Assembly (NCBI GenBank): GCA_964645485.1
Contig: CAZXZO010000002.1
Coordinates: forward strand, 138,312 to 151,766
From: an uncultured Candidatus Poseidoniales archaeon
Lineage (GTDB): Archaea; Thermoplasmatota; Poseidoniia; Poseidoniales; Thalassarchaeaceae
Direction of reading: 5' to 3'
DNA length: 13,455 nucleotides
Below the pieces are notes generated by a model. That model was given only the letters and a program-made list of their open reading frames with translations, did no database searches and was not told where the DNA came from. Shown in pieces: positions 25-13,455 of the stretch. Within the stretch, counting starts at the first letter, position 1, and every line of letters begins with the position of its first letter. Both the position numbers and the translations under genes were made by a program.

Positions 25-588
25 TCAGTTTTCACGGCCATAAGCGGCTAAAGCCGCCTGAAACAATCTTTGACGCGGTACATCATGTTCTAAGAAACAG
101 GTAAATGGGGCTAATTCCTTTACTAGTTCAATACTAGAAATGTATGCCCCATATACGAAGGCATCTACATTCTCAGACCCAGGAATCTCAAAGCCCAATT
201 TTGCAAGTCCTTTTCGTGTGTCCTCATCCCAAATTGTGTAGGTGTGGTGCATGAAGTGTAGGTAGCCAGATATTCTTTTCATGTCTGAACCTGCATCACT
301 AGAGAGACTCTCAAGAAGAAGCGTGTCAGGGTAACGAATTGCGTAGAGCATGAGCATCACCTCACGGTCCACCTCTTTTCTCCAAGACCGAGGCTCGTGC
401 CCCATCCACTCATCAATCATGTCCAACATGTTCTCGGAATAAGGCCTGTAAACACGATACAATAATTCTTCATATCCTGCATCATTTTGAGAAGAATGAT
501 GGTGGTGTGCCGCGAATAATTCCGGTACACGTTCGAAGAACGGTCTCAACTTTTCCCGATTTACATTCAGCAGGGCGAATGCCTGCAT
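25..588 (-). CDS. Hypothetical protein (187 aa), translationally coupled to the boxB-like gene
   Basis: The track start at 648 overlaps boxB. A better start is ATG 588, preceded by GAGGTGG overlapping the boxB stop (TGAGGTGGTAGATATG). It contains SGYLHFMHHTYTIWDEDTRKGL, loosely resembling the 'LHF..P..YPI.D' segment of HhH-glycosylase-like proteins. Function is unassigned. Confidence 0.8.
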   Translation of the reverse strand: MQAFALLNVNREKLRPFFERVPELFAAHHHHSSQNDAGYEELLYRVYRPYSENMLDMIDEWMGHEPRSWRKEVDREVMLMLYAIRYPDTLLLESLSSDAGSDMKRISGYLHFMHHTYTIWDEDTRKGLAKLGFEIPGSENVDAFVYGAYISSIELVKELAPFTCFLEHDVPRQRLFQAALAAYGREN

Positions 589-590
589 AT

Positions 591-600
591 CTACCACCTC
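591..600 (-). promoter_or_regulatory. Shine-Dalgarno GAGGTGG overlapping the boxB stop codon
   Basis: Minus strand TGAGGTGGTAGAT-ATG(588); matches the archaeal SD consensus GGAGGTGA. Confidence 0.7.
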
Positions 601-1759
601 AGTCCTTCCACTCTCGGTATTGAATCCACTCTTCTTTGAAGTATTCATTGAGTTGTGCTACATCTTCATCGTTAGGCAACTGGTCGTCTAGGTATTGCTC
701 CCAAGCAGCGTCGTCTCCCTCAAATGGTTCCCCTCGGACTGTGGTTCTAATGTCAACATACTTCCCAACGCTGCGGTGGAATTTATCTGATGGAATGAAT
801 AATTCAGGCTGCCCTTCATGACGGCCTTTGTTAATTCTCTCCATCTCTTTTGCGAGTTCATCAAAGTAGTGCATTCTGCTTTCTTCGTTCAGGTGCTCAC
901 GGTCTGCAGGAATTCCTGCCTCTCGTTCATCATATCTACCTTTGATTCCGTAAACATAAGCCCACTGTGCCGATGTTGATTCATCAACGCCAAACAAATC
1001 CAGTCCTGTTGAGACCCATTTGTTCATGTATTTTTGAAGTAGAGAAATTGGTATTACTCCCTGCTTTACAATTCGGCGCAAGCCATTTGCGCCGGTGCCA
1101 AGATGGAATGATTCTTCCTTTAGCATCGGGCCCATGCTTGCAGCAAGTGGTTTGAAAGAAGAAGTACTCAACATTTTGAGTTGGAATTTTCCATCACGGT
1201 CTATGAAATGAGTGAAGCAGAAGAAATCAAGCCAGTTGTCAATTGGTTCATTGAAAGAACCTAAGAGTCGGGGTCTGTCTTCCTCGCCACGAATTGGGTT
1301 TGCAGCAGAGTTACGCTCAAGCAATTTTTGTGCTTCACGAATTCCGTGTTCGCCAAAATAGTTGCAAAGGACATAAGCCATTTGCCAACCATGTCGTTGT
1401 TCTTCGCACATGATTCTGAGGGCTGACTTTCGGTCATACTCAGTTGGTGCGCTGTCGAGTAAATGCCATTGTTGCTCAACACTGCCAAACTCGGTATCAC
1501 CTTGAACGCTAATCATACTGATGATTGCATCACGAACGCTCTGTTGTGGGATTTGCATTCTTCGCTCCCACTTTGGCATTCCCTCGAAATCTCCGAATTC
1601 AATTTCATCTCCAGCACTGTCCCAGTCAAATTTGATATCGAATCTGTAGTCACCAAGCCACGAAGGGTCAAACCCGATTCTTGTTTGCCATTCAGCGAAT
1701 TGTTCAACCCAAGCTTGAAAATTCGGCTCATATTTTTCTACAATTTCTGTGGAACTCAT
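599..1759 (-). CDS. boxB: BoxB-type benzoyl-CoA 2,3-epoxidase-like class I diiron protein (compact, 386 aa)
   Basis: Diiron ligand motifs QGDTE(E90), CEEQRH(E120/H123), DRDGK(D187/D189) and KEESFH(E216/H219). BoxB-specific segments include SVEQQ.HL..AP..YD, YFG..G.REA..LLER, PRLLGSFNE, LQKY.N, DLFG.D.S and GIKGRY. SD AAGGAGAG lies upstream at 1768-1775. Confidence 0.88.
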   Translation of the reverse strand: MSSTEIVEKYEPNFQAWVEQFAEWQTRIGFDPSWLGDYRFDIKFDWDSAGDEIEFGDFEGMPKWERRMQIPQQSVRDAIISMISVQGDTEFGSVEQQWHLLDSAPTEYDRKSALRIMCEEQRHGWQMAYVLCNYFGEHGIREAQKLLERNSAANPIRGEEDRPRLLGSFNEPIDNWLDFFCFTHFIDRDGKFQLKMLSTSSFKPLAASMGPMLKEESFHLGTGANGLRRIVKQGVIPISLLQKYMNKWVSTGLDLFGVDESTSAQWAYVYGIKGRYDEREAGIPADREHLNEESRMHYFDELAKEMERINKGRHEGQPELFIPSDKFHRSVGKYVDIRTTVRGEPFEGDDAAWEQYLDDQLPNDEDVAQLNEYFKEEWIQYREWKD

Positions 1760-1782
1760 GATTTATTCTCTCCTTGATTTAA

Positions 1783-2640
1783 TCAGTTGCCGGTAAAGCG
1801 AGGAGTACGGCGTTCTGTGTACGCCGCAATTCCTTCTTTTGCATCATCACTGTTGAACAATGCTGCTTGCAATTCTCTCTCGAAAGCGAGGTGGTACTCA
1901 AATGGCATTTCTGGTCCTGATTGACAACTACGCTTGATGTTACCAACCGCTTTGGTTGCTTTGTATGGTAGTGTAAATTGGCCGGCCCAGTCAAGAATGT
2001 CTTGTCGGAAGTCAGCAGCGGATCCATCCCAAAGATGGTTGATGAGGTTCAACTCAACACCCTTTTCAAAAGCCAAAAGTTCTCCTGAAACCATGTATTC
2101 AAGGGCTTTTGCTTTGCCAATTAATCGGGTTAAGCGGGCAGTTCCGCCTGTACCAGCAAGAACCCCGAGGTTTATCTCTGGTAGACCCATTTTCCCTGCA
2201 TCTTTGCGAGCGATTCGGATGTCACAAGCCATTGCGATTTCAAGTCCACCACCTACTGCGTGACCATTTAATGCTGCAATTACCAGTTTTGGAGTCTGTT
2301 CTAAACGACTTAGAGTTTCATTTGCGTGGAGACAAAAATTGTACTTGAATCCAGGTGTTACGCTGTTTAGCATGTCGATGCTTGCACCGGCTGAAAAGAA
2401 TTTCTCGCCATGCCCTATCATTACGATAACATGAACATCATCATCAAAACGTGCCTTGACAACTGCTGTGTCGATATCTCTCATCATTTCGTGAGTGTAG
2501 GTATTTGGTCCCATTGCACCTTCTTCCAAAGGAGCGCCAGATGAATCAGACGCGAGTTCAATTATCGCTATTCCATTATCGGTCACACCGTAGTTCACAA
2601 GTTTGTTCGGCATTGCTTCAAGTTCGGGCCAGTTTGTCAT
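1783..2640 (-). CDS. Crotonase-superfamily enzyme corresponding to the N-terminal catalytic domain of BoxC (single domain, 285 aa)
   Basis: Crotonase motifs FSAGASIDML, ALNGHAVGGGLE (E134) and GLPEINLGVLAGTGG (E155). FKYNFCLHANET (C103) matches the BoxC segment WKVNFCKFTNET as recalled. The gene lies 23 nt upstream of boxB on the same strand. Confidence 0.85.
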   Translation of the reverse strand: MTNWPELEAMPNKLVNYGVTDNGIAIIELASDSSGAPLEEGAMGPNTYTHEMMRDIDTAVVKARFDDDVHVIVMIGHGEKFFSAGASIDMLNSVTPGFKYNFCLHANETLSRLEQTPKLVIAALNGHAVGGGLEIAMACDIRIARKDAGKMGLPEINLGVLAGTGGTARLTRLIGKAKALEYMVSGELLAFEKGVELNLINHLWDGSAADFRQDILDWAGQFTLPYKATKAVGNIKRSCQSGPEMPFEYHLAFERELQAALFNSDDAKEGIAAYTERRTPRFTGN

Positions 2641-2685
2641 AGGCTATCGGCCTCGCGACTTGTGCTCAACATATCAATTGTACCC

Positions 2686-2702
2686 CACTCCCATAGGGAG
2701 TG
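2686..2702. promoter_or_regulatory. Perfect inverted repeat CACTCCC-ata-GGGAGTG, candidate operator
   Basis: A 7-bp palindrome with a 3-nt spacer, 46-62 nt upstream of the crotonase ATG. It is followed by an imperfect IR GTGAAGTT...AATTTCAC (2702-2723). Confidence 0.45.
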
Positions 2703-2703
2703 T

Positions 2704-4600
2704 GAAGTTGCGAAAAATTTCACCCGATCTGAATATGATAAATTATCTTACATTCTAAATCTTGCTTTGGACAATTCATAATATACAAGAATTCGCCTCG
2801 ATCATTTATTGCGTCTTTCGATAAAAATCAGTTAGAAAGACATAATTATGAATCACGCTTACCAAATTTATGTGTTTCAGATGTGTTTTAGGAAAAGCAT
2901 TAAATTTTTTCCTTATATTTATAATGGCTTCAAGCATTATTATGATAGTTGGTGGAGTTCAGGATCTCCTTACTATGAACTGAGTTTTGAACTAGACGCC
3001 CAATTAAAAAGAAACAATGATGTAGTTTATTCAACATCACCGGTTTTCAAAACTGAATATGTAGTCATTTGATGTTACGGGGGTGAGTTCATTATTCAAA
3101 ACAAACCATACTTTAATTATTCTATCAAATATAAAGCGACTTTATTTTATTTATTGATTTTTTTCCTTTCAATTTCAATATATATTCAAACCCATTCTTC
3201 AATAAACAATTATGAAGGTAACCCCGATAACGATGGATTTGACTTCAAAATAAATGAGTCTAATCAATCAATTTTGGGAATAGCAGGTGAAGAATTAAAT
3301 TTGTACAGTGAGATGGCTATTGACTCATATGGAAATATTTACACTGCTTACTACAATGAAAACTCATCACAGATTAGTCCATCTAAATCCCTTATTGTAT
3401 CCAAAATAGATAAACATGGAATAATTATTTGGAGTAATAATCTCTCTGTGAAGAGCTTTGGAATGAAAGATATTGAAGTTGATTACAATGGTAATCTGTA
3501 TGTCGCAGGGATTCAATTCGTTGACAACGAAATAATTGAATCTTACCAACAATATTATGACTTAGCCAATGATTGTGTTATAATAAAATACTCAAGTATT
3601 GGTGAATTAAAATGGGTCCAGAGTGTTGGCGACTCTTTGACTGTAGATATTTTTGAAATATCAATTAATCAAAAAAATGACATCTTTGTTGCAGGTTCTT
3701 TTTCCTCTGGGTCAATCACCATCGGCGAAACCGAATTAATTAACCGGAACCTTACAGGAGATACCGCCGATTCCTACATCGCCAAACTGGATGACAGAGG
3801 AAATTGGAATTGGGCAATATCATTTGGTGGTAAGGGACATGAGGGAATTTCGTCAACTTATGTAACAAATAACGGAGAGATATTAATTGGTGGAACTTTT
3901 GATTCAGATTTGATTGTCATAAATGATGAATTTACAATCAAAAGTAATAACTCATATTCTGATTCATTCGTGGGAAAGTTAGATCATTTTGGAAATATAA
4001 TTCATTTCACAACTTTAACTGGACAGGATGATGAGAAGATACTGGACATTAGCGCAGATAACAATGGAGGAGTTGCAGTGGTTGGAACTTTTAGATCTGA
4101 TATTCTGAATTCAGACTGTGGTACAAATATCAGAGGTACAGGGGTTGTAGATTCATATGTGGTAAAATATGATTCAAACCTCAAGTGTGAGTGGGTAAGG
4201 ACATTCTCATCAGATTCCTATACTTTTGCCAATCAAATTGCGATTGATAAAAATCTTGATTCAATCTTTATTGCAGGATTTTATTATGGCGAGCACCTTA
4301 TTATTGGTAATGATATAATCTCGAACCCACATAATGAAGAATGTGTACCCCATATGTCAGATGATTGTTTTGATATCTTTTTAGTACAACTTTCAGAAAC
4401 AGGTGATAATATAGGTGCAATGAGTTTCGGCGGACCGTCAACAGATATTTCTGAGGACCTATTAGTGTCTGAGAATGTGTATCTAACAATGTATTCAAAA
4501 TCTCCAGTCATTAAATTGAATAGTTTTGATTATACGATCAATGAAAGTTTTGATATTTACTTGATTGAGTTTGAAATGGATCAGCAAGAGACTCCAAACT
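2704..4600. other. AT-rich (low-GC) segment, probable horizontally replaced region
   Basis: Hand-counted 60-nt lines: 2641-2700 53% GC, 2701-2760 28%, 3121-3180 18%, 3181-3240 32%, 4501-4560 25%, 4681-4740 47%, 4741-4800 47%. Confidence 0.7.
2848..3072 (+). CDS. Dubious small ORF (74 aa) in the AT-rich segment
   Basis: Listed in the ORF track, with no recognisable motif. A competing 37-aa hydrophobic ORF (2870-2983) overlaps it in another frame. Confidence 0.2.
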   Translation: MNHAYQIYVFQMCFRKSIKFFPYIYNGFKHYYDSWWSSGSPYYELSFELDAQLKRNNDVVYSTSPVFKTEYVVI

Positions 4601-4842
4601 ATTCTGAATTGGCAATTGGAAAAACTGGCGCGGAAATTAAAAGTGTAGCATGGAAATTAGCATTCTCCTTAGCAATTCTGATTACAGTTTGGATAGCAAT
4701 CTTAAATCCGATACCTGAGCACTGGACTGCCGGCATCGGAGACAGTCTGAAGGAAGTGCGAAGGTATGCGCGAACTGAACATCAAACTGAATCAAGACTG
4801 TTCGCGCCGAGATTGGGGCTAGATGAATCGGAAGAGGAATAA
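3154..4842 (+). CDS. Membrane-anchored seven-bladed beta-propeller (SBBP-like repeat) surface protein; true start probably upstream of 3154
   Basis: Seven blades of the type (I/A)xDxxGNxYVAGxF...D(S/I)(Y/F)(I/V)xKxDxxGxxxW, e.g. AIDSYGNIY, VDYNGNLYVAG, INQKNDIFVAGSF, VTNNGEILIGGTF, ADNNGGVAVVGTF, AIDKNLDSIFIAGF and LLVSENVYL. There is an N-terminal hydrophobic stretch and a C-terminal TM helix (VAWKLAFSLAILITVWIAIL). The frame is open back to 3073. Confidence 0.85.
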   Translation: MIFFLSISIYIQTHSSINNYEGNPDNDGFDFKINESNQSILGIAGEELNLYSEMAIDSYGNIYTAYYNENSSQISPSKSLIVSKIDKHGIIIWSNNLSVKSFGMKDIEVDYNGNLYVAGIQFVDNEIIESYQQYYDLANDCVIIKYSSIGELKWVQSVGDSLTVDIFEISINQKNDIFVAGSFSSGSITIGETELINRNLTGDTADSYIAKLDDRGNWNWAISFGGKGHEGISSTYVTNNGEILIGGTFDSDLIVINDEFTIKSNNSYSDSFVGKLDHFGNIIHFTTLTGQDDEKILDISADNNGGVAVVGTFRSDILNSDCGTNIRGTGVVDSYVVKYDSNLKCEWVRTFSSDSYTFANQIAIDKNLDSIFIAGFYYGEHLIIGNDIISNPHNEECVPHMSDDCFDIFLVQLSETGDNIGAMSFGGPSTDISEDLLVSENVYLTMYSKSPVIKLNSFDYTINESFDIYLIEFEMDQQETPNYSELAIGKTGAEIKSVAWKLAFSLAILITVWIAILNPIPEHWTAGIGDSLKEVRRYARTEHQTESRLFAPRLGLDESEEE

Positions 4843-4912
4843 TCCGTAATGAATGTTTATTTCCGCATTACTCAAGGGTGAGTGGCTTGTCCCGAGAGCC
4901 GGAGAGAGGGGT

Positions 4913-6139
4913 ATGCGCGAGGTAGTTGTTGTCTCAGCAGTCCGCACTGCAATTGGTAATCACGGTGGTGCTTTAGCGACAATTAGGCCAGATGATTTAG
5001 CCTCGCTTGTTATCAAAGAGGCTGTAGAGAGAGCAGGAATCAAAGGAGATGAAATTGAAGAAGTCTATTTTGGTTGCACCAATCAAGCCGGTGAAGATAA
5101 TCGAAATGTTGCCCGGATGGCATTACTCCTCGCCGGTTTGCCAACATCTGTTGGAGGGGTCACCTTCAATCGATTATGTGCTTCTGGATTGACTGCGATT
5201 AATGCTGCTGCGAGAGCTATTCGTTGCGGCGAAGGCGATGTCTACGTAGTCGGTGGAGTAGAATCTATGTCGCGGGCCCCATATGTAATGGCAAAACCAG
5301 AGAAGGGGTTTGCTATTGGTAATCCGATGGTGCAAGATACCACTCTAGGTTGGAGGTTTTCAAATCCACAATTAAAGGAGGACTATGGTAATGATGGGAT
5401 GGGTGTTACTGCAGAAAATCTGAGGGAATTATCCACAGTTGATTTGAAGAACACCTCACGAGAATCACAGGACAAATTCGCCCTGAACAGCCATAACAAG
5501 GCGGTTGAAGCGATAGATTCGGGGCGCTTTGATGATGAAATAGTCGCTGTTGAGATACCTCAAAGAAAAGGAGATCCAATAACCTTCGATACTGATGAGA
5601 GGCCTAGGCGTGACAGTACAATGGAAAAGTTGGGTAAATTGAAACCGGCTTTCAAGAAAGGTGGCAGTGTTACTGCTGCTAATTCTAGTGGCATCAATGA
5701 TGGTGCCGCCGCCTTAGTCATGATGAGTGCAGATAAGGCGGCTGAATTGGAGTTAGAACCGATGGCAACTTGGGTAGCAAGTGGCGCTGCGGGTGTTGAA
5801 CCACGAACAATGGGTTGGGGCCCGATTCCAGCGACTAGAAAAGCACTTGAAAGAGCGGATATGAAAATTTCAGACCTTCATTTGGTTGAACTAAACGAGG
5901 CGTTTTCCCTTCAAGCATTAACTTGTATTGATGAACTAGGCCTTAATGAAGAAATAGTCAATGTCAATGGTGGAGCGGTTGCTCTTGGACACCCACTTGG
6001 TTGTTCGGGAGCGAGGATAGTCGTAACCTTACTTCATGAGATGTTGAGAAGGTCAGAAAACCATGATGGTGAAATGAATGGGCTGGCAACTTTATGTGTT
6101 GGTGTAGGTCAAGGCGAAGCAGCAATTTTTCAGCGCTGA
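4913..6139 (+). CDS. pcaF: Acetyl-CoA C-acyltransferase of the PcaF/PaaJ/BoxE (3-oxoadipyl-CoA thiolase) subgroup, 408 aa
   Basis: Catalytic motifs NRLCASG, NEAF, GHPLG and LCVGVG. Subgroup signatures [39 protein letters not shown] and [10 protein letters not shown]. Start moved to ATG 4913 ([12 protein letters not shown]), preceded by GGAGAGAGGGG. Confidence 0.88.
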
Positions 6140-6453: not shown

Positions 6454-6765
6454 ATGCGAACCATATATGTTGGAAGAAAGCCAGTACACGCTTATGTTGC
6501 CGCAGTGTTGAGAGCAATGCAAGATGGTGACCGGGATGTTGAATTAGTTGCAAGAGGTAACTCAATGAGAACAGCAATTGATACTGCTGAAATATGCCGT
6601 AGACGTAACGGAAACATCGCAAGCAATCTTCCTGCTGAGATGTTCAACAGGGGAGTTGAAATTGGCACAGAAGAGATTGAGATGGAAGATTCTGTCCGAG
6701 TTCTTTCATATGTCAAGATTCACTTAGAAGGCATTGGTGAGATGCCTGATGATTCCGAAGAGTAA
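6454..6765 (+). CDS. albA: Alba-family nucleic-acid-binding protein (divergent, net acidic)
   Basis: IYVGRKPVHAYV, VELVARG, AIDTAEI, VEIGTEEI and LSYVKIHL align with the Alba pattern IGxKPxxxYV...IKARG...AVDxAE...IxIGTE...SxIEIxL. SD AGGAG lies upstream. Confidence 0.88.
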   Translation: MRTIYVGRKPVHAYVAAVLRAMQDGDRDVELVARGNSMRTAIDTAEICRRRNGNIASNLPAEMFNRGVEIGTEEIEMEDSVRVLSYVKIHLEGIGEMPDDSEE

Positions 6766-6823
6766 TTCACTAATTTCACACCATCAGAGAATTCGGTAGC
6801 AAGTCGCTCCATTCATCCCCGAC

Positions 6824-7192
6824 TTATTCGTCCACAACTAGTTGGCGGACATTACTTTCAATCTCATCACGTATTTCTTGATACTTCTCAAGAACTCCGC
6901 CAACAGGGTCATCTAATTTCCAATCAGCCTTGAATTTCAGGTTAGGGCATGAAACACCACATCCCATTGAAAAGATTAGGTCAAAAGATTCTGTATCCAC
7001 ATCATCTAGATTGGTCGGTTCTTGATTGGAAATATCAATTCCCTTTTCAGCCATTACTGCAATTGCATTCTTGGCTACAGATTGCCCTGGGTGGGTGCCT
7101 GCAGATTGCGCTTCCAACCCGTGATATTTTGCCCAACCTTCAGCCATCTGGCTGCGGCAGGTGTTGCCAACACAAACGAATAATACACGCAT
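6824..7192 (-). CDS. arsC: LMW phosphatase family protein / arsenate reductase ArsC-like
   Basis: P-loop CVGNTCRS (C7, C12, R13), QMAEG, AGT, MGCGVSCP (C78, C82) and W..DDP. SD GGTGAT at 7199-7204. Confidence 0.8.
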   Translation of the reverse strand: MRVLFVCVGNTCRSQMAEGWAKYHGLEAQSAGTHPGQSVAKNAIAVMAEKGIDISNQEPTNLDDVDTESFDLIFSMGCGVSCPNLKFKADWKLDDPVGGVLEKYQEIRDEIESNVRQLVVDE

Positions 7193-7240: not shown

Positions 7241-10200
7241 TCAGAGTTGTTTTTGGAACTCGTTATTCAAACCTAGTTGTTCATCAAGGCTTCCACCTCG
7301 TCGCATCAGGACTACGATAGCAACTCCACCACCAAGCATCACAACACCCAAAATAATCATGACAATCATCACCGTTGACCCCCAATCACTCAATGCATCT
7401 GTTGGATTTGTTAGGGGGTCAACCTCCTTGTCAGAAAGTTCCACAGTTGCCTCAAATACAGGATTTGTGCTCTGGAGATAGACATCGATTCCTCGGAAAT
7501 CAAGAACTAAGGTGTCAACCGGCAGACCTTCTCTGACAGTCACTTGAATGGAGTATATTCCATCACCCGCAATCTCATCTCCTTGTTGTCCGTCGTCTCT
7601 CATGGTTTGCCATGTTGTGTCTTGACCAACTGGTGCAAGCATTCGCAACCTACCTTGTACTACGGTTATTGGATCGTGGTCTGTCGCATTAACAGTTAAC
7701 ACATAATTTGAGGCACCATCACCAACATCTGGTATGATTATTTTTTCAACTTCTGAACCATCTTTTAGGATTCGGAAATCAGAAATTACCGGCGCACCAT
7801 TTTCTATTAGAAGTGGGGGGATACTTGCGGTGGCCGCATCCCATGCATCACCACCAACTCCGGCCACAGAACTTGGCGAGTTTAGATGTGTCAGAATCGC
7901 CCAACCACCTCCGCTATCAATCGTCTTGACGGGAAGATACAGGTCTCCAGGGCTAACAGTTTCTGGAATTGTTACCTCACCACTCCAATAGTCGCCACCA
8001 TCGTGCGTGAGTGGGTAGATTTCGCCGCCTTCGGCGATTAAATCAATGCCAACACTCTCGATTGAAAGGCTGTCAAATACCTTGACAGTCACCGTCACAT
8101 TTTCACCCCGTTCAGCCTGTTCACTGCCGAGTGTGAAATCAACAATTCGTGGTGCTCGGTGCACTACTTCCATCGTTACATCTTCTGCCGTGCTACTCCA
8201 AGCATCAACCGCGGTTGGGGTGATTGTTAAGTTGCCGGCATCGGTCCCGTAATAGACAAATGAGCCGGTGAAATTGTCATCGTGAACAATGATATCACCA
8301 TCTTGGCCGAGATCATTCAATTCGATTGTTCCTAGTCCCAATGTTGACAAATCAACAGTGACTTCACGCATATTCCAATCCGGGTCATTGATTTCAACTT
8401 CAATGTGAACTAAGTTGCCACCCTCGTTGAGGACTCTGTCTTCTTGAAGGCGGACTTCAACTATTTCTGGCGCGGTATTTTCACTAGCAGAAATGATACT
8501 GGGTGAAAGCACTCTTTCAAGGGATTGGTTTTCCCAAAACCAAGCATCTTCTGTAGCATTGAAATCAAGATAAACTTCCCTTGAGACTTCAGCTATCAAG
8601 CCAGCAAGTATTCCATCGTTGATGACTAATCCTGTTGCACTGCTCAAGTCACTCAAGTATGTACCACTCCACGAAGTAACGTCCATTGTGTGCCCGTCAC
8701 GAGTAAAAGATTGGTAAGAATTTGCAGTTAATTCCAATTTCATCAAGTTTCCAGAATAAAGCCCTACATTATCTCCGATTTGCAGTTCAGTAGGAGCCAA
8801 ACCCGTCTCTCGACTGATGTTTATGTCCCCTAGTCCAGAATCATCTGGCTCTGTGCTATTCACCACTTCTACAGGTATTGGGGAATTGGGTGGCCACTCT
8901 TCACCCTGACTTGGGTCGTCACTCTGTTCATACCAAGAATAGTAGATTGTGCGGTTAGTATAATTCTCGTAAATCACTTCATGGTCCCACGTTTCGTTGT
9001 AGGTTTGGGTAGGTCCCATGCCCTCTAGCAAACCACCTCCAGTTAGGTTTAGCCAATCCTCTTGGTGGATACGATTGACCTCCCACATTTGGCCAGTAGA
9101 GTTAGCGGATTGGCCGCTGTCTTCAATTCGGCGCCACATGCCGAATTCACCAGTGGTAGCACCAGTGATGTCCGCGTCAATGTGGATCGTGTCGGCAACC
9201 TTTGTGCCATCTTGTGTTTCTTGATGAAGAAGTATTACTTCCCCATCTATCACGATTGAACCATTTTCATCGTTAGTATCTGAAAAGAAAAATGTACCAT
9301 CACCGTAGGTTTTGTCATGTTGGAGAACTATCTCACCGTCTTCATATCGTTCAAGAGATATTAGTTGCTCAAGGTCAACATAAATGTAAGAACCAGACGA
9401 TTGAATTTCTAATTCACCAGTTGCTTGAAACTCGGTGTGCTCAAGCACTCTTACACCATCAACATCGTGTAATTCAACTAATAATAATGAGATTTCAGCG
9501 TCAACGTACATTTCTTCATCTTCATCAACATTAGTGATGTTCAAGTTGCCATTTGCTTCCATTCGAAGTTGTTCTTCGATTGAACCATCAATCATCGAGC
9601 GTAGTATGTAAGCATCCTCAACAGATGCTGAAATTGTTAAGTTTCCATCAGTATCATCAGTGATGGTCATGTTTCCAGCACCAGCCATCTCAAAGATTTG
9701 GCTAGTGAGTTCTTCACCAACCATTGTTTCATTGAGCCAAATTCTGTTTAAGTCAAGGACAATCAGAATATTACTTCCATCCTCAGATACCTCATCAATC
9801 GTCAGTGTTCCCGAACCCAATTCATCGTGTATCAACACTCCATCAGTTCGTTGTTGCCATCCTTGTCCATTGAATTCAAGGAGATATTCTTCAGTAGTTT
9901 GATTTTCTATTTGATGCCGTAAGGACCAATCAGTTGTGACAGTGATTTCATGGTCGGATATGGGTTGATTCCATAGCGTGGCTTGGACGGTTCTTGAAGA
10001 AAGGAGGGTGGAAGTAGCGTTGTCAAACACTTCTAGGACAATTTCATCGCCAAAAGAAAGGTTACTCGGGAGGGTGATGCGGTGGTGAGTCAGGTTCACT
10101 GGTGAAATTGTGTAATTTTCATCATTCCAAAGGAAAGTCCAGGTTCCAACTTCGGTTCCGTTGACGTCTGTGTGAGTTGCATTAACGAAAAATTCTGCGG

Positions 10201-10387
10201 AATTTGTAGTTTCATCGAACGAAATCAGGTATGAGTGGTCCGCTTCTCCGTCCTCATTATGGTCAAGCCAATCTACCGAGATTAATGGTGGAGTAGAGCC
10301 AGATGCTAAAGTCAGTGGAAGCGCTAGTGAAGTCAAGAAAAGTAGCATCAATACAATTGCCGGTCGACCACTCGCATCTCTTCTCAT
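7241..10387 (-). CDS. Large acidic secreted, membrane-anchored surface protein (1048 aa) with internal beta repeats, Ig-like modules and choice-of-anchor-X-like motifs
   Basis: Signal peptide MRRDASGRPAIVLMLLFLTSLALPLTLA. The protein is D/E/T-rich with many NxS/T sequons, carries LNDLGQDGD...DDNFTG and MRDDGQQGDEIAGDGIYS motifs, and ends in a TM helix (VMIVMIILGVVMLGGGVAIVVLM) followed by RR. Confidence 0.9.
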   Translation of the reverse strand: MRRDASGRPAIVLMLLFLTSLALPLTLASGSTPPLISVDWLDHNEDGEADHSYLISFDETTNSAEFFVNATHTDVNGTEVGTWTFLWNDENYTISPVNLTHHRITLPSNLSFGDEIVLEVFDNATSTLLSSRTVQATLWNQPISDHEITVTTDWSLRHQIENQTTEEYLLEFNGQGWQQRTDGVLIHDELGSGTLTIDEVSEDGSNILIVLDLNRIWLNETMVGEELTSQIFEMAGAGNMTITDDTDGNLTISASVEDAYILRSMIDGSIEEQLRMEANGNLNITNVDEDEEMYVDAEISLLLVELHDVDGVRVLEHTEFQATGELEIQSSGSYIYVDLEQLISLERYEDGEIVLQHDKTYGDGTFFFSDTNDENGSIVIDGEVILLHQETQDGTKVADTIHIDADITGATTGEFGMWRRIEDSGQSANSTGQMWEVNRIHQEDWLNLTGGGLLEGMGPTQTYNETWDHEVIYENYTNRTIYYSWYEQSDDPSQGEEWPPNSPIPVEVVNSTEPDDSGLGDINISRETGLAPTELQIGDNVGLYSGNLMKLELTANSYQSFTRDGHTMDVTSWSGTYLSDLSSATGLVINDGILAGLIAEVSREVYLDFNATEDAWFWENQSLERVLSPSIISASENTAPEIVEVRLQEDRVLNEGGNLVHIEVEINDPDWNMREVTVDLSTLGLGTIELNDLGQDGDIIVHDDNFTGSFVYYGTDAGNLTITPTAVDAWSSTAEDVTMEVVHRAPRIVDFTLGSEQAERGENVTVTVKVFDSLSIESVGIDLIAEGGEIYPLTHDGGDYWSGEVTIPETVSPGDLYLPVKTIDSGGGWAILTHLNSPSSVAGVGGDAWDAATASIPPLLIENGAPVISDFRILKDGSEVEKIIIPDVGDGASNYVLTVNATDHDPITVVQGRLRMLAPVGQDTTWQTMRDDGQQGDEIAGDGIYSIQVTVREGLPVDTLVLDFRGIDVYLQSTNPVFEATVELSDKEVDPLTNPTDALSDWGSTVMIVMIILGVVMLGGGVAIVVLMRRGGSLDEQLGLNNEFQKQL

Positions 10388-10511: not shown

Positions 10512-10913
10512 TTAGAACAGTGGTTCTTCATAACCATCATCAGTACGGTTCCAAATATCAGTGGCTAAATCATCGTAGATATTGAATTCAGGAGAATCAA
10601 CTTCTTCCTCTTCCTCTTCCAAGTATCCGAGCGCTTTTTGGGCTAATTCAGCCTTAAATCTCCAATAGTGAATACGCCACTCTCTGCCATCCCAAAGAGT
10701 AGTTTCTTCGGATTCAGTAGTCAACAGGTTGTAATCTTGAAAAATATAAAACAAATTTCTGTCAGTTGGCTCCAAAGCATTATCGATGATACGGTCATAA
10801 TAACCAAAGAATCCTAGAGCATGTTCTGCCATGCTCTCTGCGACAGTCTTTTCCATTTCTTTGTCAATATGCCGTTGAATTGCAGCAGTTAATCCCGCCA
10901 TTGTCATTCCCAT
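10512..10913 (-). CDS. Conserved Thermoplasmata-type hypothetical protein (DUF6015-like by recollection), 133 aa with acidic tail
   Basis: Core FFGYYDRIIDNALEPTDRNLFYIFQDYNLLTTESEETTLWDGREWRIHYW resembles a conserved Thermoplasmata family. Start moved to ATG 10913, preceded by SD AAGGAGAG. Confidence 0.75.
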   Translation of the reverse strand: MGMTMAGLTAAIQRHIDKEMEKTVAESMAEHALGFFGYYDRIIDNALEPTDRNLFYIFQDYNLLTTESEETTLWDGREWRIHYWRFKAELAQKALGYLEEEEEEVDSPEFNIYDDLATDIWNRTDDGYEEPLF

Positions 10914-11091
10914 GAAAATCTCTCCTTGTTTGAGTGCTCCGTCAAAACTATCGCACTCGGGTACACCTATTATTTGTACACCGCAATATATCAACAATCC
11001 GGTGGAAAAGACCCATTACATCGGTTGAGCACCGGTTTTGAACCGGCGAGAATGCATAAAACCAAACAAGCCGGGCAGTGCTTTGAGAGAT

Positions 11092-12018
11092 ATGGCAGAT
11101 GACTCAATCAGCGGCAATTTTCTCGGCTTGAAAGAGTCAGGCAGAGATGGTGCTGATATTGCAATACTTTCGCTTCCCTATGAATTGACAGTTTCATATG
11201 GACAAGGCACCGAAAATGGTCCAGCAGCTTGTATTGAGGCGTCAGCTCAAGTCGAATTACACGATCCATTATTGAGTGAAGATTTGCCCGCAGGTCGAAC
11301 AATTTTCACAGCAGAACCTTGGGATGGTGAAGGTGGTTCATTAGAGGAACAGTTAGAGGGTATTGAGAAGTATCTCCAAGAGTGGACAGATGGCCAAGTT
11401 TTCCCTGTCGTTTTGGGAGGTGAGCATGGCTGTCTCCCAGCGATAATGAGAGCCCTTTCGAAACACCCAAGTTTAGCCGGTGATTTGAGTCGTCTAACAG
11501 TTGTACAGATAGATGCACACGCAGATTTGAGAGACCAGTTAGATGGCGACAAATTTAGCCACGCCTGTGCTGCGCGGAGGGCCTTGGATGAGGGGGTTGG
11601 AAACCTGATTCAAATCGCGGTGCGTGCGTACTCAAAAGAAGAGGACGAATTTATCAAATCAGAGAAGCGTGTACAGACCTATTTCGCTCGTGATTTATTA
11701 ACACAAATTGGCGATGAGAATGGCTGGCAGTCATTGCTCCGTAATTTGTCTGAACTCAAAGGGCCAGTATGGCTAACTTTGGATATTGATGGATTAGATG
11801 GTTCGATTGTGCCGCATACAGGTACTCCGGTTCCAGGTGGATTGGCTTATTGGCAGGCTGTTGAGGTGATTGAAAGCCTGTTTTTGGCCAACCGCACACA
11901 GGTGATTGGTGCTGATGTAGTGGAGATTGTACCGGGTACAGATAATAATTTGACGCAGTTTACTGCGGCCATGCTAGCGACAAAAATTGTTGCCGCACAC
12001 ATCGCTTCTCTTCCTTAG
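11092..12018 (+). CDS. speB: Agmatinase / ureohydrolase (arginase family), 308 aa
   Basis: Metal-binding motifs GGEHG, DAHADLRD, SHAC, LDIDGLD, TGTPVPGG and GADVVEI. The N-terminal PYELTVSYGQGTENGP is typical of agmatinases. Start moved to ATG 11092. Confidence 0.88.
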   Translation: MADDSISGNFLGLKESGRDGADIAILSLPYELTVSYGQGTENGPAACIEASAQVELHDPLLSEDLPAGRTIFTAEPWDGEGGSLEEQLEGIEKYLQEWTDGQVFPVVLGGEHGCLPAIMRALSKHPSLAGDLSRLTVVQIDAHADLRDQLDGDKFSHACAARRALDEGVGNLIQIAVRAYSKEEDEFIKSEKRVQTYFARDLLTQIGDENGWQSLLRNLSELKGPVWLTLDIDGLDGSIVPHTGTPVPGGLAYWQAVEVIESLFLANRTQVIGADVVEIVPGTDNNLTQFTAAMLATKIVAAHIASLP

Positions 12019-12097
12019 ATTGTGGTTGATTCTTCAATGATAGTGCAACTTGGTTGTAATGCTAAGGCTAAAATCATCCTGCCATTAGCGACCATTT

Positions 12098-13455
12098 GTG
12101 TCACGCATTACGCCAGTCTTAGTTCTAGCCGTTTTGCTACTATCAAGTGCACCTACTACAGTTGCCCAACAACCGGATATTGTTCAGGAACATTGGTACC
12201 ATTCCTATCTGACACTTACAACTGATGTCCACTCCTGGGTAACTGATTACCCCGAAATAGTAACTCTGACTTCTGCTGGACAAACCGAACTCGGACGGAA
12301 TCTCTGGGTTGTTCAAATCTCTGATTGGAGCGTGGAACTAAAGCCAGATGGGGCGAAAAAAGAGATTGTCTACATTGATGGTGGTCACCATGGGAATGAG
12401 CACTTGGGGACTGAATTGGCTTTCTTGACAGCTGAATATTACATTGAGGGTTGGGCTGCTGGTGATCAGGAAGCCATTGATGTTCTGACTACTACTGAAC
12501 TCCACATACTCATCATGCTCAATGCAGATGGCAATGATATCGACACCCGTTGGAATATCAACCAAGTAGACTTGAACAGAAATTACGACCATTACTGGGA
12601 TACTTGTCCAGTTACCCAACCTGGTAGTGCTGCCTTTAGTGAATCAGAAACTCTTGCTAATTCGATTTACATGAACACAGTTGTTCCAGATGCTGACTTG
12701 TATGTCACTATGCATACTGGGGTGTGGATTATGCTCTACCCTTGGGGTAAATGGCCGGAGCAACCTTCAGATTGGGAATTATATCATGGCATCAGAGAAG
12801 ATGTTCACGCAAATATCTCAGACATTCCTATTCAAAATGCAAATCAAGGATTATACCCAAATTGTGGAACTAGTAGAGATTATGGCTATGGGGTGATGGG
12901 TTTCCCAACATTCACCTTTGAAACTGATGATGAACAATGGGCACTTGGTACTGTTGAGCCTTTGTCACAACGCCTTGGCGAAGAGTTGGATGTTATGCAA
13001 TATCTGATTTCTAATATCTGGTATTGGCGGGCCCGACTCTCAGTCACATCGTTTGAGTACAGTGGAGATAACATCGAACTGAAGGTTGACAATTTAGGGA
13101 GGGCAAGCACTTCAAATGCCACGGTCCGATACATCGAGGGTAGTGAAGTGATGTGGACGTCGGAGTTGTTTAGTGTTAATGCAACCAACAGTTCGCACGT
13201 TTACCTAGATTCGTCGAATCTGAGTCTAACAGATTCTGGTCACTTTGAATTGTATTATCAAAAGCGAGTAATTGATGCAAGCCTTTGGGTCAACGAATCA
13301 ATTCCAGACGAGGTTCTTCGAGTAGTTGAAACCGCTAGCAAAGGATTACTTCCCGCGCCTGGAATCTTCATTTCTCTCCTTGCGGCATTCGGGGCAGCAA
13401 TCGCTTCGGAACGGCGTGAAACCATGTTTTTCCATGAAAAAAATGCTGGCCGAAC
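12098..13455 (+). CDS. Secreted M14-family zinc carboxypeptidase with C-terminal membrane anchor (3' end outside window; not in ORF track)
   Basis: Hand-translated open frame from GTG 12098 (in-frame TAG at 12086) to the window end. Signal peptide (M)SRITPVLVLAVLLLSSAPTTVA; Zn motif GGHHGNE (H98, E101); NADG; DLNRNYD; MHTG (H206); FTFET (E275); C-terminal LLPAPGIFISLLAAFGAAIASERR. Confidence 0.92.
   Translation, partial: MSRITPVLVLAVLLLSSAPTTVAQQPDIVQEHWYHSYLTLTTDVHSWVTDYPEIVTLTSAGQTELGRNLWVVQISDWSVELKPDGAKKEIVYIDGGHHGNEHLGTELAFLTAEYYIEGWAAGDQEAIDVLTTTELHILIMLNADGNDIDTRWNINQVDLNRNYDHYWDTCPVTQPGSAAFSESETLANSIYMNTVVPDADLYVTMHTGVWIMLYPWGKWPEQPSDWELYHGIREDVHANISDIPIQNANQGLYPNCGTSRDYGYGVMGFPTFTFETDDEQWALGTVEPLSQRLGEELDVMQYLISNIWYWRARLSVTSFEYSGDNIELKVDNLGRASTSNATVRYIEGSEVMWTSELFSVNATNSSHVYLDSSNLSLTDSGHFELYYQKRVIDASLWVNESIPDEVLRVVETASKGLLPAPGIFISLLAAFGAAIASERRETMFFHEKNAGR

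Follow-up and report, generated by a model that had tools for sequence, protein, structure and literature searches.

We analyzed a 13,455-nucleotide stretch of archaeal DNA (the whole of which is referred to below as the window; G000:C2:138312-151766), located within a 1.94-Mb genome that is 82% complete, and found that it holds the core of a conserved, probably horizontally shared module centered on a short-form diiron oxygenase of the BoxB family. Apart from the BoxB-like oxygenase, the module components in the window are a partner protein specific to Thermoplasmatota and an enoyl-CoA hydratase-type crotonase (ECH_A), while a 3-hydroxyacyl-CoA dehydrogenase (HCDH), a second crotonase, of isomerase type (ECH_B), and an aldehyde dehydrogenase (ALDH) lie just outside the window, and a thiolase is added in the genus. 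We consider it an even prospect that this short-BoxB module carries out an O2-dependent attack on a benzoyl-type CoA thioester, following an epoxide strategy like that of the Box and Paa systems, rather than running the Box pathway itself. An earlier note on this DNA had proposed a stripped-down Box system for aromatic ring cleavage. Of that proposal, the BoxB-family enzyme and its link to a crotonase stand, while the BoxC-like identity of the crotonase and a fixed thiolase do not, and no BoxA, BoxC or aryl-CoA ligase was found in the 82%-complete genome.

Homologues nearly identical to the central protein carry the names Candidatus Thalassarchaeaceae, Poseidoniales or Thermoplasmatota, and Alba and DUF6015 are also encoded in the window. 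The host is therefore an archaeon of Marine Group IIb (MGIIb; Thalassarchaeaceae), which bears out the previous guess of a Marine Group II (MGII) host. The contig is not chimeric at the locus, as the gene order is the same as in other MGIIb genomes.

The BoxB-like protein and its predicted partner

The BoxB-like gene (599-1759, minus strand) encodes a short-form BoxB-family diiron oxygenase of 386 residues, recognized by its matches to TIGR03225, PF05138 and PDB entry 3PER. The match to 3PER, Azoarcus BoxB, has an E of 3.5e-49 across residues 35-283, with an identity of ~45% over the four-helix-bundle core. The BoxB equivalog model TIGR03225 scores 219.6 bits, with model positions 63-322 and 354-440 aligned, which is below the cut-off of 499.1 bits, while those canonical BoxB rows of our tree that were checked score 509-908 bits. 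The match to PaaA is weak, the model TIGR02156 giving 29.1 bits against a cut-off of 280. A short PaaA/BoxB-like protein of Sulfolobus (SSO1313 type; 4MUD, a structural-genomics entry) also matches the diiron core, with an E of 4.3e-16, but at 235 residues, and with a match much weaker than that of BoxB.

The six iron ligands of BoxB (E120, E150, H153, D211, E240 and H243, in BoxB numbering) were all aligned and are all kept, not only in the window protein but throughout the Poseidoniales rows, so that the intact ligand set reported in the earlier note holds. Among the seven residues that orient the benzoyl group, for which the second-shell roles were taken from a study of BoxB (PMC5489048), six are kept, namely Q116, T119, S123, F193, F203 and F206, which leaves most of the benzoyl pocket in place. 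The seventh, T210, is Thr in every canonical BoxB row, but Ile takes its place in the window protein, and each Poseidoniales row has either Ile or Val there. The window protein thus shares PF05138, core identity, iron ligands and six pocket residues with the BoxB of BoxAB (Azoarcus/Aromatoleum evansii; 3PER, 3PM5), but differs in its length (386 against ~473 residues), as it lacks ~60 residues at the N-terminus and an insertion that follows the second ExxH helix.

We built a quick maximum-likelihood tree from 35 rows, in which canonical BoxB makes up a clade of 21 rows (Shimodaira-Hasegawa-like approximate likelihood ratio test, SH-aLRT, 99; branch 0.86). The window protein falls outside this clade, a grouping that the earlier note had named as counting against its reading, and the Poseidoniales proteins group in a clade of their own amid other short forms of 350-395 residues. 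Because the ligands and most of the pocket are kept, while the score lies below the cut-off, the clade is separate and the protein is shorter, the window protein, as judged from its sequence, is a member of the BoxB family but not a BoxB orthologue. As an aside, the BoxB-like proteins of Marine Group IIa (MGIIa; L055:9432-10589 and L052:9483-10640) end in a conserved extra tail, …ARQIASGIGA…, which is missing from MGIIb.

The partner gene (25-588, minus strand) starts 10 nt after the stop codon of the BoxB-like gene and encodes 187 residues, when its start is placed at Met21 of a 207-residue open reading frame (ORF; 25-648). This start is preceded by GAGGTGGT, a Shine-Dalgarno-like motif that overlaps the upstream stop codon. 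Searches of Pfam and NCBIfam gave no match for the partner. An AlphaFold (AF2) model built from 18 sequences is all-helical, with a predicted local distance difference test (pLDDT) value of 87. A Foldseek search of this model against the PDB returned nothing at an E of 0.001 or better, while an exhaustive aligner (VIA-align) placed 3N0U first, with a Z of 7.0, 159 residues aligned and a root-mean-square deviation of 4.6. Further matches to HhH-GPD glycosylases have a Z of 3.4-5.1 (e.g., 5.1 for 8A5G and 4.9 for 1PU6), a queuosine hydrolase is also among the top fold matches, and the ESM Atlas neighbors of the partner are the N-terminal domains of McrB and NucS-type proteins. With regard to the HhH motif and the catalytic Asp that mark this fold, only an HhH-like stretch, GLxKLG...P, is conserved. 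It should be considered that the HhH-GPD-like fold suggested by the model is weak, as at such Z values the likeness may extend to no more than a common arrangement of helices.

When the partner and the BoxB-like protein were modeled together, the three runs gave ipSAE (interaction prediction score from aligned errors) values of 0.82, 0.82 and 0.79, as compared to 0.19 for the best control. The 0.82 mark is attained by 58 of 80 solved complexes and by 2 of 110 mismatched pairs, rates that are only roughly applicable here because custom alignments were used. The three runs share at least 80% of contacts, with a partner pLDDT of at least 85. The predicted interface uses invariant stretches of both proteins, comprising residues 198, 209-225 (the helix with E215, E216 and H219) and the C-terminal 380-386 of the BoxB-like protein, together with the invariant 159-171 stretch of the partner. 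These models predict that the partner binds the BoxB-like protein on the helix carrying the second iron-ligand motif. Effector proteins of multicomponent diiron monooxygenases sit over ligand-bearing helices, and the partner may, by analogy, be comparable to such proteins. Separately, a His cluster (HHHH) is found in the partners of MGIIb only. Two MGIIa genomes had also appeared to carry a fusion of the BoxB-like and partner genes, an impression that was discarded, as direct translation shows stop codons between the two.

Gene order and co-occurrence in two domains of life

Of 151 Poseidoniales genomes, 148 carry the BoxB-like gene, as a single copy, and all 22 genera are represented. The synteny that the earlier note had advised checking is there: the partner gene is the next one downstream of the BoxB-like gene in each of the 10 Poseidoniales loci and, outside the Poseidoniales, in 9 of 11 Thermoplasmatota loci (19/21), and HCDH, ECH_B and ALDH are near the BoxB-like gene in all 10 Poseidoniales loci. 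ECH_A adjoins the BoxB-like gene in three of four MGIIb loci and in family f2, lies ~5-8 kb off in four of five MGIIa loci, and was not found within the 20-kb loci L054 and L059. In MGIIa, the pair of BoxB-like and partner genes is preceded by an HTH_10 regulator and followed by an EamA transporter. The partner was seen in Thermoplasmatota only.

Among 251 Thermoplasmatota genomes, the BoxB-like gene is present in 79 and was not found in eight genomes of family f4, from the same class, nor in several large families. Some Thermoplasmatota carry shorter forms of 260-310 residues, similar to the Sulfolobus protein. ECH_A orthologues have nearly the same distribution: of 197 Thermoplasmatota genomes from outside the Poseidoniales, 21 encode both genes, 5 the BoxB-like gene without ECH_A, 3 ECH_A without the BoxB-like gene and 168 neither of them. 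As these genomes are related, the counts are descriptive and no statistical test was attached to them.

ECH_A (1783-2640, minus strand; 285 residues) lies 23 nt upstream of the BoxB-like gene on the same strand and matches PF00378 with 137 bits (cut-off 27). Its top NCBIfam match is PRK07658 (174.7 bits) and its top PDB match is 2PPY, a plain enoyl-CoA hydratase (220 bits), and both catalytic glutamates of hydratases are present, in GGGLE and GLPEINLG. The suggestion that this is a BoxC-like crotonase comes down to superfamily kinship, as the BoxC model TIGR03222 reaches 77.6 bits where the cut-off is 712.3 and aligns only over model positions 7-175 of 548, while the BoxC structure 2W3P ranks 57th among the PDB matches (66.9 bits). 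Where BoxC, a 2,3-epoxybenzoyl-CoA dihydrolase, has ~550 residues and two domains, ECH_A has a single domain and keeps both glutamates. ECH_A is thus, by its sequence features, an ordinary two-glutamate enoyl-CoA hydratase and not BoxC, although it is the most constant link of the short BoxB, as boxC is of boxB. ECH_B is without both hydratase glutamates and its top family matches are the alternative oxepin-CoA hydrolase and PaaG, features that are compatible with an epoxide/oxepin route. With profile scores below the cut-offs, ECH_A also matches PaaF, and HCDH matches PaaH.

The thiolase gene (4853-6139, plus strand) is a 428-residue ORF with a probable start at Met21, base 4913. It lies on the strand opposite to the BoxB-like gene, behind the gene for a 562-residue surface protein. 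The top-scoring subtype models are those of PcaF, both below their cut-offs (TIGR02430, 494.8 bits, cut-off 597; PRK09050, 503.3 bits, cut-off 605), while the general thiolase model TIGR01930 is passed with 447 bits against 240. The PcaF-like type proposed previously thus stands, but the linkage does not, as in none of the 10 other Poseidoniales loci is this thiolase found within 10 kb of the BoxB-like gene. Orthologues with at least 57% identity are found only in the genus itself and in family f2, the thiolases of other Poseidoniales being paralogues of at most 49% identity, and even within the genus the orthologues are 14 kb distant or on another contig. The thiolase is therefore an accessory gene of its own genus, loosely associated with, and not a fixed part of, the archaeal module. 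In the thiolase tree, it stands beside thiolases from Eremiobacterota operons, on a long branch (SH-aLRT 86), a kinship that is suggestive only.

A scan with one genome per species returned more than 580 relatives of the BoxB-like protein, and the counts that follow are from the best 67 bacterial loci, in which the BoxB-like proteins are 47-54% identical to that of the window. These loci come from Acidobacteriota, Gemmatimonadota, Binatia, Eremiobacterota, Thermodesulfobacteriota and others. An ECH_A orthologue with 56-67% identity to the protein of the window genome is next to the short BoxB gene in 48 of the 67 loci, ALDH (37-44% identity) is near in 23, HCDH (30-54%) in 21, and a PcaF-like thiolase (50-57%) lies inside the operon in 14. 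Given these counts, the link between oxygenase, crotonase and PcaF-type thiolase is real as a recurrent bacterial operon, so that this part of the earlier proposal holds in bacteria, and in most MGII the thiolase is lost or replaced. The partner was not found in any of the 67 bacterial loci. Synteny in two domains of life and phyletic co-occurrence together tie the diiron protein functionally to a crotonase and to enzymes of beta-oxidation type, as had been suggested.

In Gemmatimonadota, the operon has the order TetR, ECH_A, ALDH, thiolase, ECH, BoxB-like, GDPD, HCDH, ECH, Amidohydro_2 and a DASS transporter. The TetR_C_24 regulator, with which the operon starts, Amidohydro_2 and the DASS-type carboxylate transporter are clues that hint at the substrate. 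The Amidohydro_2 family is rich in aromatic-acid decarboxylases and lactonases. The gene of ~225 residues following the BoxB-like gene was considered as a diverged partner and rejected, since it encodes a GDPD-family phosphodiesterase, which fills this slot at L118:8095-8772 and in five other Gemmatimonadota loci.

Pathway context and competing explanations

For the substrate, the type of reaction, the source of electrons and the part played by each neighboring gene, we infer the following. Using O2 and electrons from an unlinked donor, the diiron enzyme would epoxidize or hydroxylate a benzoyl-type CoA thioester, that is, an aroyl ester or one closely shaped. The crotonase-family enzymes would then open or rearrange the product of the oxygenase, and ALDH, hydratase, dehydrogenase and thiolase would carry it to central CoA esters. 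A candidate for the electron donor, or for a second oxidoreductase of the module, is a FAD/NAD(P)-binding protein of 420 residues, whose gene lies directly before ECH_A in six other Poseidoniales loci (L052:875-2137 and equivalents) and on contig 3 in the window genome (C3:104706-105941). It has a weak similarity to geranylgeranyl reductases, and no PDB relative of it was found. The genome encodes five acyl-CoA dehydrogenases, all of them elsewhere and none in the locus, and has a canonical set of acyl-CoA dehydrogenase, FadB-like protein and thiolase on contig 16, so that the enzymes of the locus come on top of ordinary fatty-acid beta-oxidation.

The logic of such a route is like that of PaaABC(D)E with PaaG, PaaZ, PaaF, PaaH and PaaJ (E. 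coli, Pseudomonas), in which a diiron CoA-ester epoxidase acts together with an isomerase-type crotonase, ALDH, hydratase, HCDH and thiolase, and in which the catalytic subunit also has a non-catalytic protein partner. However, all Paa-type matches are below cut-offs, no PaaB, PaaC, PaaD, PaaE, PaaK or PaaZ-type MaoC domain was found in the genome, and neither sequence nor fold search relates the partner to PaaB or PaaC. As compared to the BoxAB system, the module has the lineage-specific 187-residue partner in place of BoxA, which was not found in the window genome.

Several observations weigh against the proposed attack on a benzoyl-type CoA ester. For BoxA, the top match to TIGR03224 reaches 83.6 bits against a cut-off of 459 and falls on the FNR domain of a CysJ-like flavoprotein that another contig encodes, no reductase is linked to the locus, and in five of five bacterial genomes with the operon BoxA was also not found; the search for a BoxA-type reductase thus yielded only this CysJ-type domain. 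Neither BoxC nor a MaoC hydratase was found in the 82%-complete genome, and, with the BoxC score of ECH_A far under the cut-off, no ring opener of a known type was recognized. The earlier note held that its reading would fail if the genome had no aryl-CoA ligase, and none was found in this genome, the lone AMP-forming ligase being of FadD type. Nor did the same genome reveal an ADP-forming acyl-CoA synthetase (ACD) or a family III CoA-transferase, and for indolepyruvate oxidoreductase (IOR) there are only weak matches to the generic two-subunit 2-oxoacid oxidoreductase. The window protein lies outside the canonical BoxB clade, and all non-canonical rows of the tree except P0204 and P0207 have a residue other than Thr at position 210. 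Five more distant bacterial relatives (P0127, P0129, P0133, P0165 and P0174) are orphans, without CoA-ester neighbors. Finally, a peripheral aromatic pathway is not expected as a single-copy core gene in streamlined genomes of 1.3-2.2 Mb, and ECH, HCDH, ALDH and thiolase are generic enzymes, equally suited to a non-aromatic substrate.

This core-gene status and these generic neighbors leave a non-aromatic substrate as a serious rival, albeit one to which we would assign a minor share of the probability. According to this explanation, a non-aromatic CoA ester (alicyclic, branched, unsaturated or otherwise resistant to beta-oxidation) would be oxidized by a hydroxylase, desaturase or epoxidase and feed a specialized branch of beta-oxidation for lipids or dissolved organic matter. 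The neighbors are all enzymes of beta-oxidation type, an AlkB-like desaturase/hydroxylase and ALDH are close by in the genome, and a FadD-type ligase is present where no enzyme forming an aryl-CoA was found; the change at T210 also fits. MGII are known degraders of lipids and proteins, and a 3-hydroxyacyl-CoA dehydrogenase is among six genes that had high transcription in each of the three Poseidoniales metagenome-assembled genomes studied (PMC9723583). Yet six of the seven benzoyl-orienting residues, three Phe among them, are kept, and bacterial operons add Amidohydro_2, with the aromatic-acid associations of that family. Moreover, the only characterized members of PF05138 act, to our knowledge, on aromatic CoA esters. 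At the other end lies a minimal Box pathway for benzoate, the strict form of the reading in the earlier note, in which the BoxB-like protein forms 2,3-epoxybenzoyl-CoA, ECH_A serves as a half-size BoxC and the PcaF-type thiolase ends the route at 3-oxoadipyl-CoA. We regard this as unlikely, and slightly more so than a non-aromatic ester. The kept pocket and ligands speak for it, ECH_A is the constant companion of the short BoxB in two domains of life, the Gemmatimonadota operons hold every enzyme class of the lower Box route, and a benzoate-CoA ligase that passes the cut-off is encoded, on other contigs, in two of five operon-bearing bacterial genomes. Nonetheless, ECH_A has one domain where BoxC has two and, with both its hydratase glutamates, is far nearer to plain hydratases; most Poseidoniales keep the oxygenase, though no orthologue of the thiolase was found in them; neither a benzoate-CoA ligase nor BoxA was found in the genome; and the oxygenase belongs to a distinct clade with T210 changed.

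A further explanation, which we consider very improbable, is that the target of the BoxB-like protein and its HhH-GPD-like partner is not a CoA ester but, for example, a nucleotide or nucleic-acid base, with the CoA enzymes as bystanders. It draws on the top fold matches of the partner, which are DNA glycosylases and a queuosine hydrolase, on the resemblance of the partner to the N-terminal domains of McrB and NucS-type proteins, and on the existence of diiron four-helix-bundle enzymes that modify tRNA, such as MiaE. The fold matches are, however, weak, at Z values of at most 7.0 for an all-helical protein and with none from Foldseek, no partner was found in the bacterial operons while the ECH_A linkage is general, the residues of the acyl-CoA pocket are kept and the phyletic co-occurrence with ECH_A is strong. 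Among these explanations, we favor the attack on a benzoyl-type CoA thioester by an epoxide strategy. Its most far-reaching form, which is tentative and rather doubtful, is that Poseidoniales, other aerobic Thermoplasmatota and many soil Acidobacteriota and Gemmatimonadota dearomatize aroyl-CoA with a trimmed BoxB that needs no BoxA, where a single-domain crotonase would replace BoxC and where, in the archaea, a capping effector subunit of HhH-GPD fold would sit over the iron-ligand helix.

Other genes of the window and biological meaning

The surface protein of 562 residues, encoded between ECH_A and the thiolase (3154-4842, plus strand), has a weak match to beta-propeller repeats and a C-terminal hydrophobic anchor. 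The G+C content of this stretch, together with the upstream gap (2641-3153), is 32%, as compared to ~44% in the rest of the window, and the low-GC stretch of 2641-4842 looks like an inserted island that parts ECH_A from the thiolase. At the island side of ECH_A, other Poseidoniales carry a FAD oxidoreductase. An ORF of 1048 residues (7241-10387, minus strand), without a Pfam family, probably encodes a large surface or secreted protein. Ordinary archaeal neighbors are found at 6454-7192 and 10512-13453, and include Alba, a low-molecular-weight phosphatase or ArsC-like protein, DUF6015, an agmatinase and an M14 carboxypeptidase.

Beyond the window, on the side of the partner gene, HCDH is encoded on the same strand ~230 nt further on. 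It is followed in locus L014, in this order, by a gene for a 135-residue protein of unknown family, ECH_B, ALDH, a P-loop kinase-like gene and an AlkB/desaturase-like gene. The AlkB/fatty-acid-desaturase-like membrane protein, the P-loop kinase-like protein and ALDH are encoded at L014:12865-16036, beside ECH_B and 2.3-5.4 kb before the window. In the slot at the side of ECH_B, the ALDHs of MGIIa and MGIIb are only ~34% identical, and different ALDHs therefore fill the same slot.

In the literature that we searched, we came upon no biochemical or comparative work on the short form, and only upon a passing mention of high MGII boxB expression. In a Red Sea metatranscriptome, MGII boxB was among the highly expressed euryarchaeal genes and was labeled as aromatic degradation, without further analysis (PMC5069720). 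This expression, together with the transcription of a 3-hydroxyacyl-CoA dehydrogenase noted above, speaks for the reading that we favor. As the BoxB-like gene is a single-copy gene in nearly all genomes and as boxB expression was high in this one study, the substrate of the module is probably a major carbon flux for MGII.

MGII archaea, which are uncultured, rank among the most abundant heterotrophs in the surface ocean. If they dearomatize benzoyl-type CoA esters, they would have to be counted with the sinks of aromatic dissolved organic matter, and the most abundant planktonic Euryarchaeota of the ocean would be its consumers. The Box/Paa epoxide strategy would, in that case, gain a third and simpler architecture, without BoxA or BoxC, that is common to soil phyla as well. 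If, instead, the substrate is not aromatic, the module would represent a new reaction for PF05138 diiron enzymes, together with a new kind of partner subunit.

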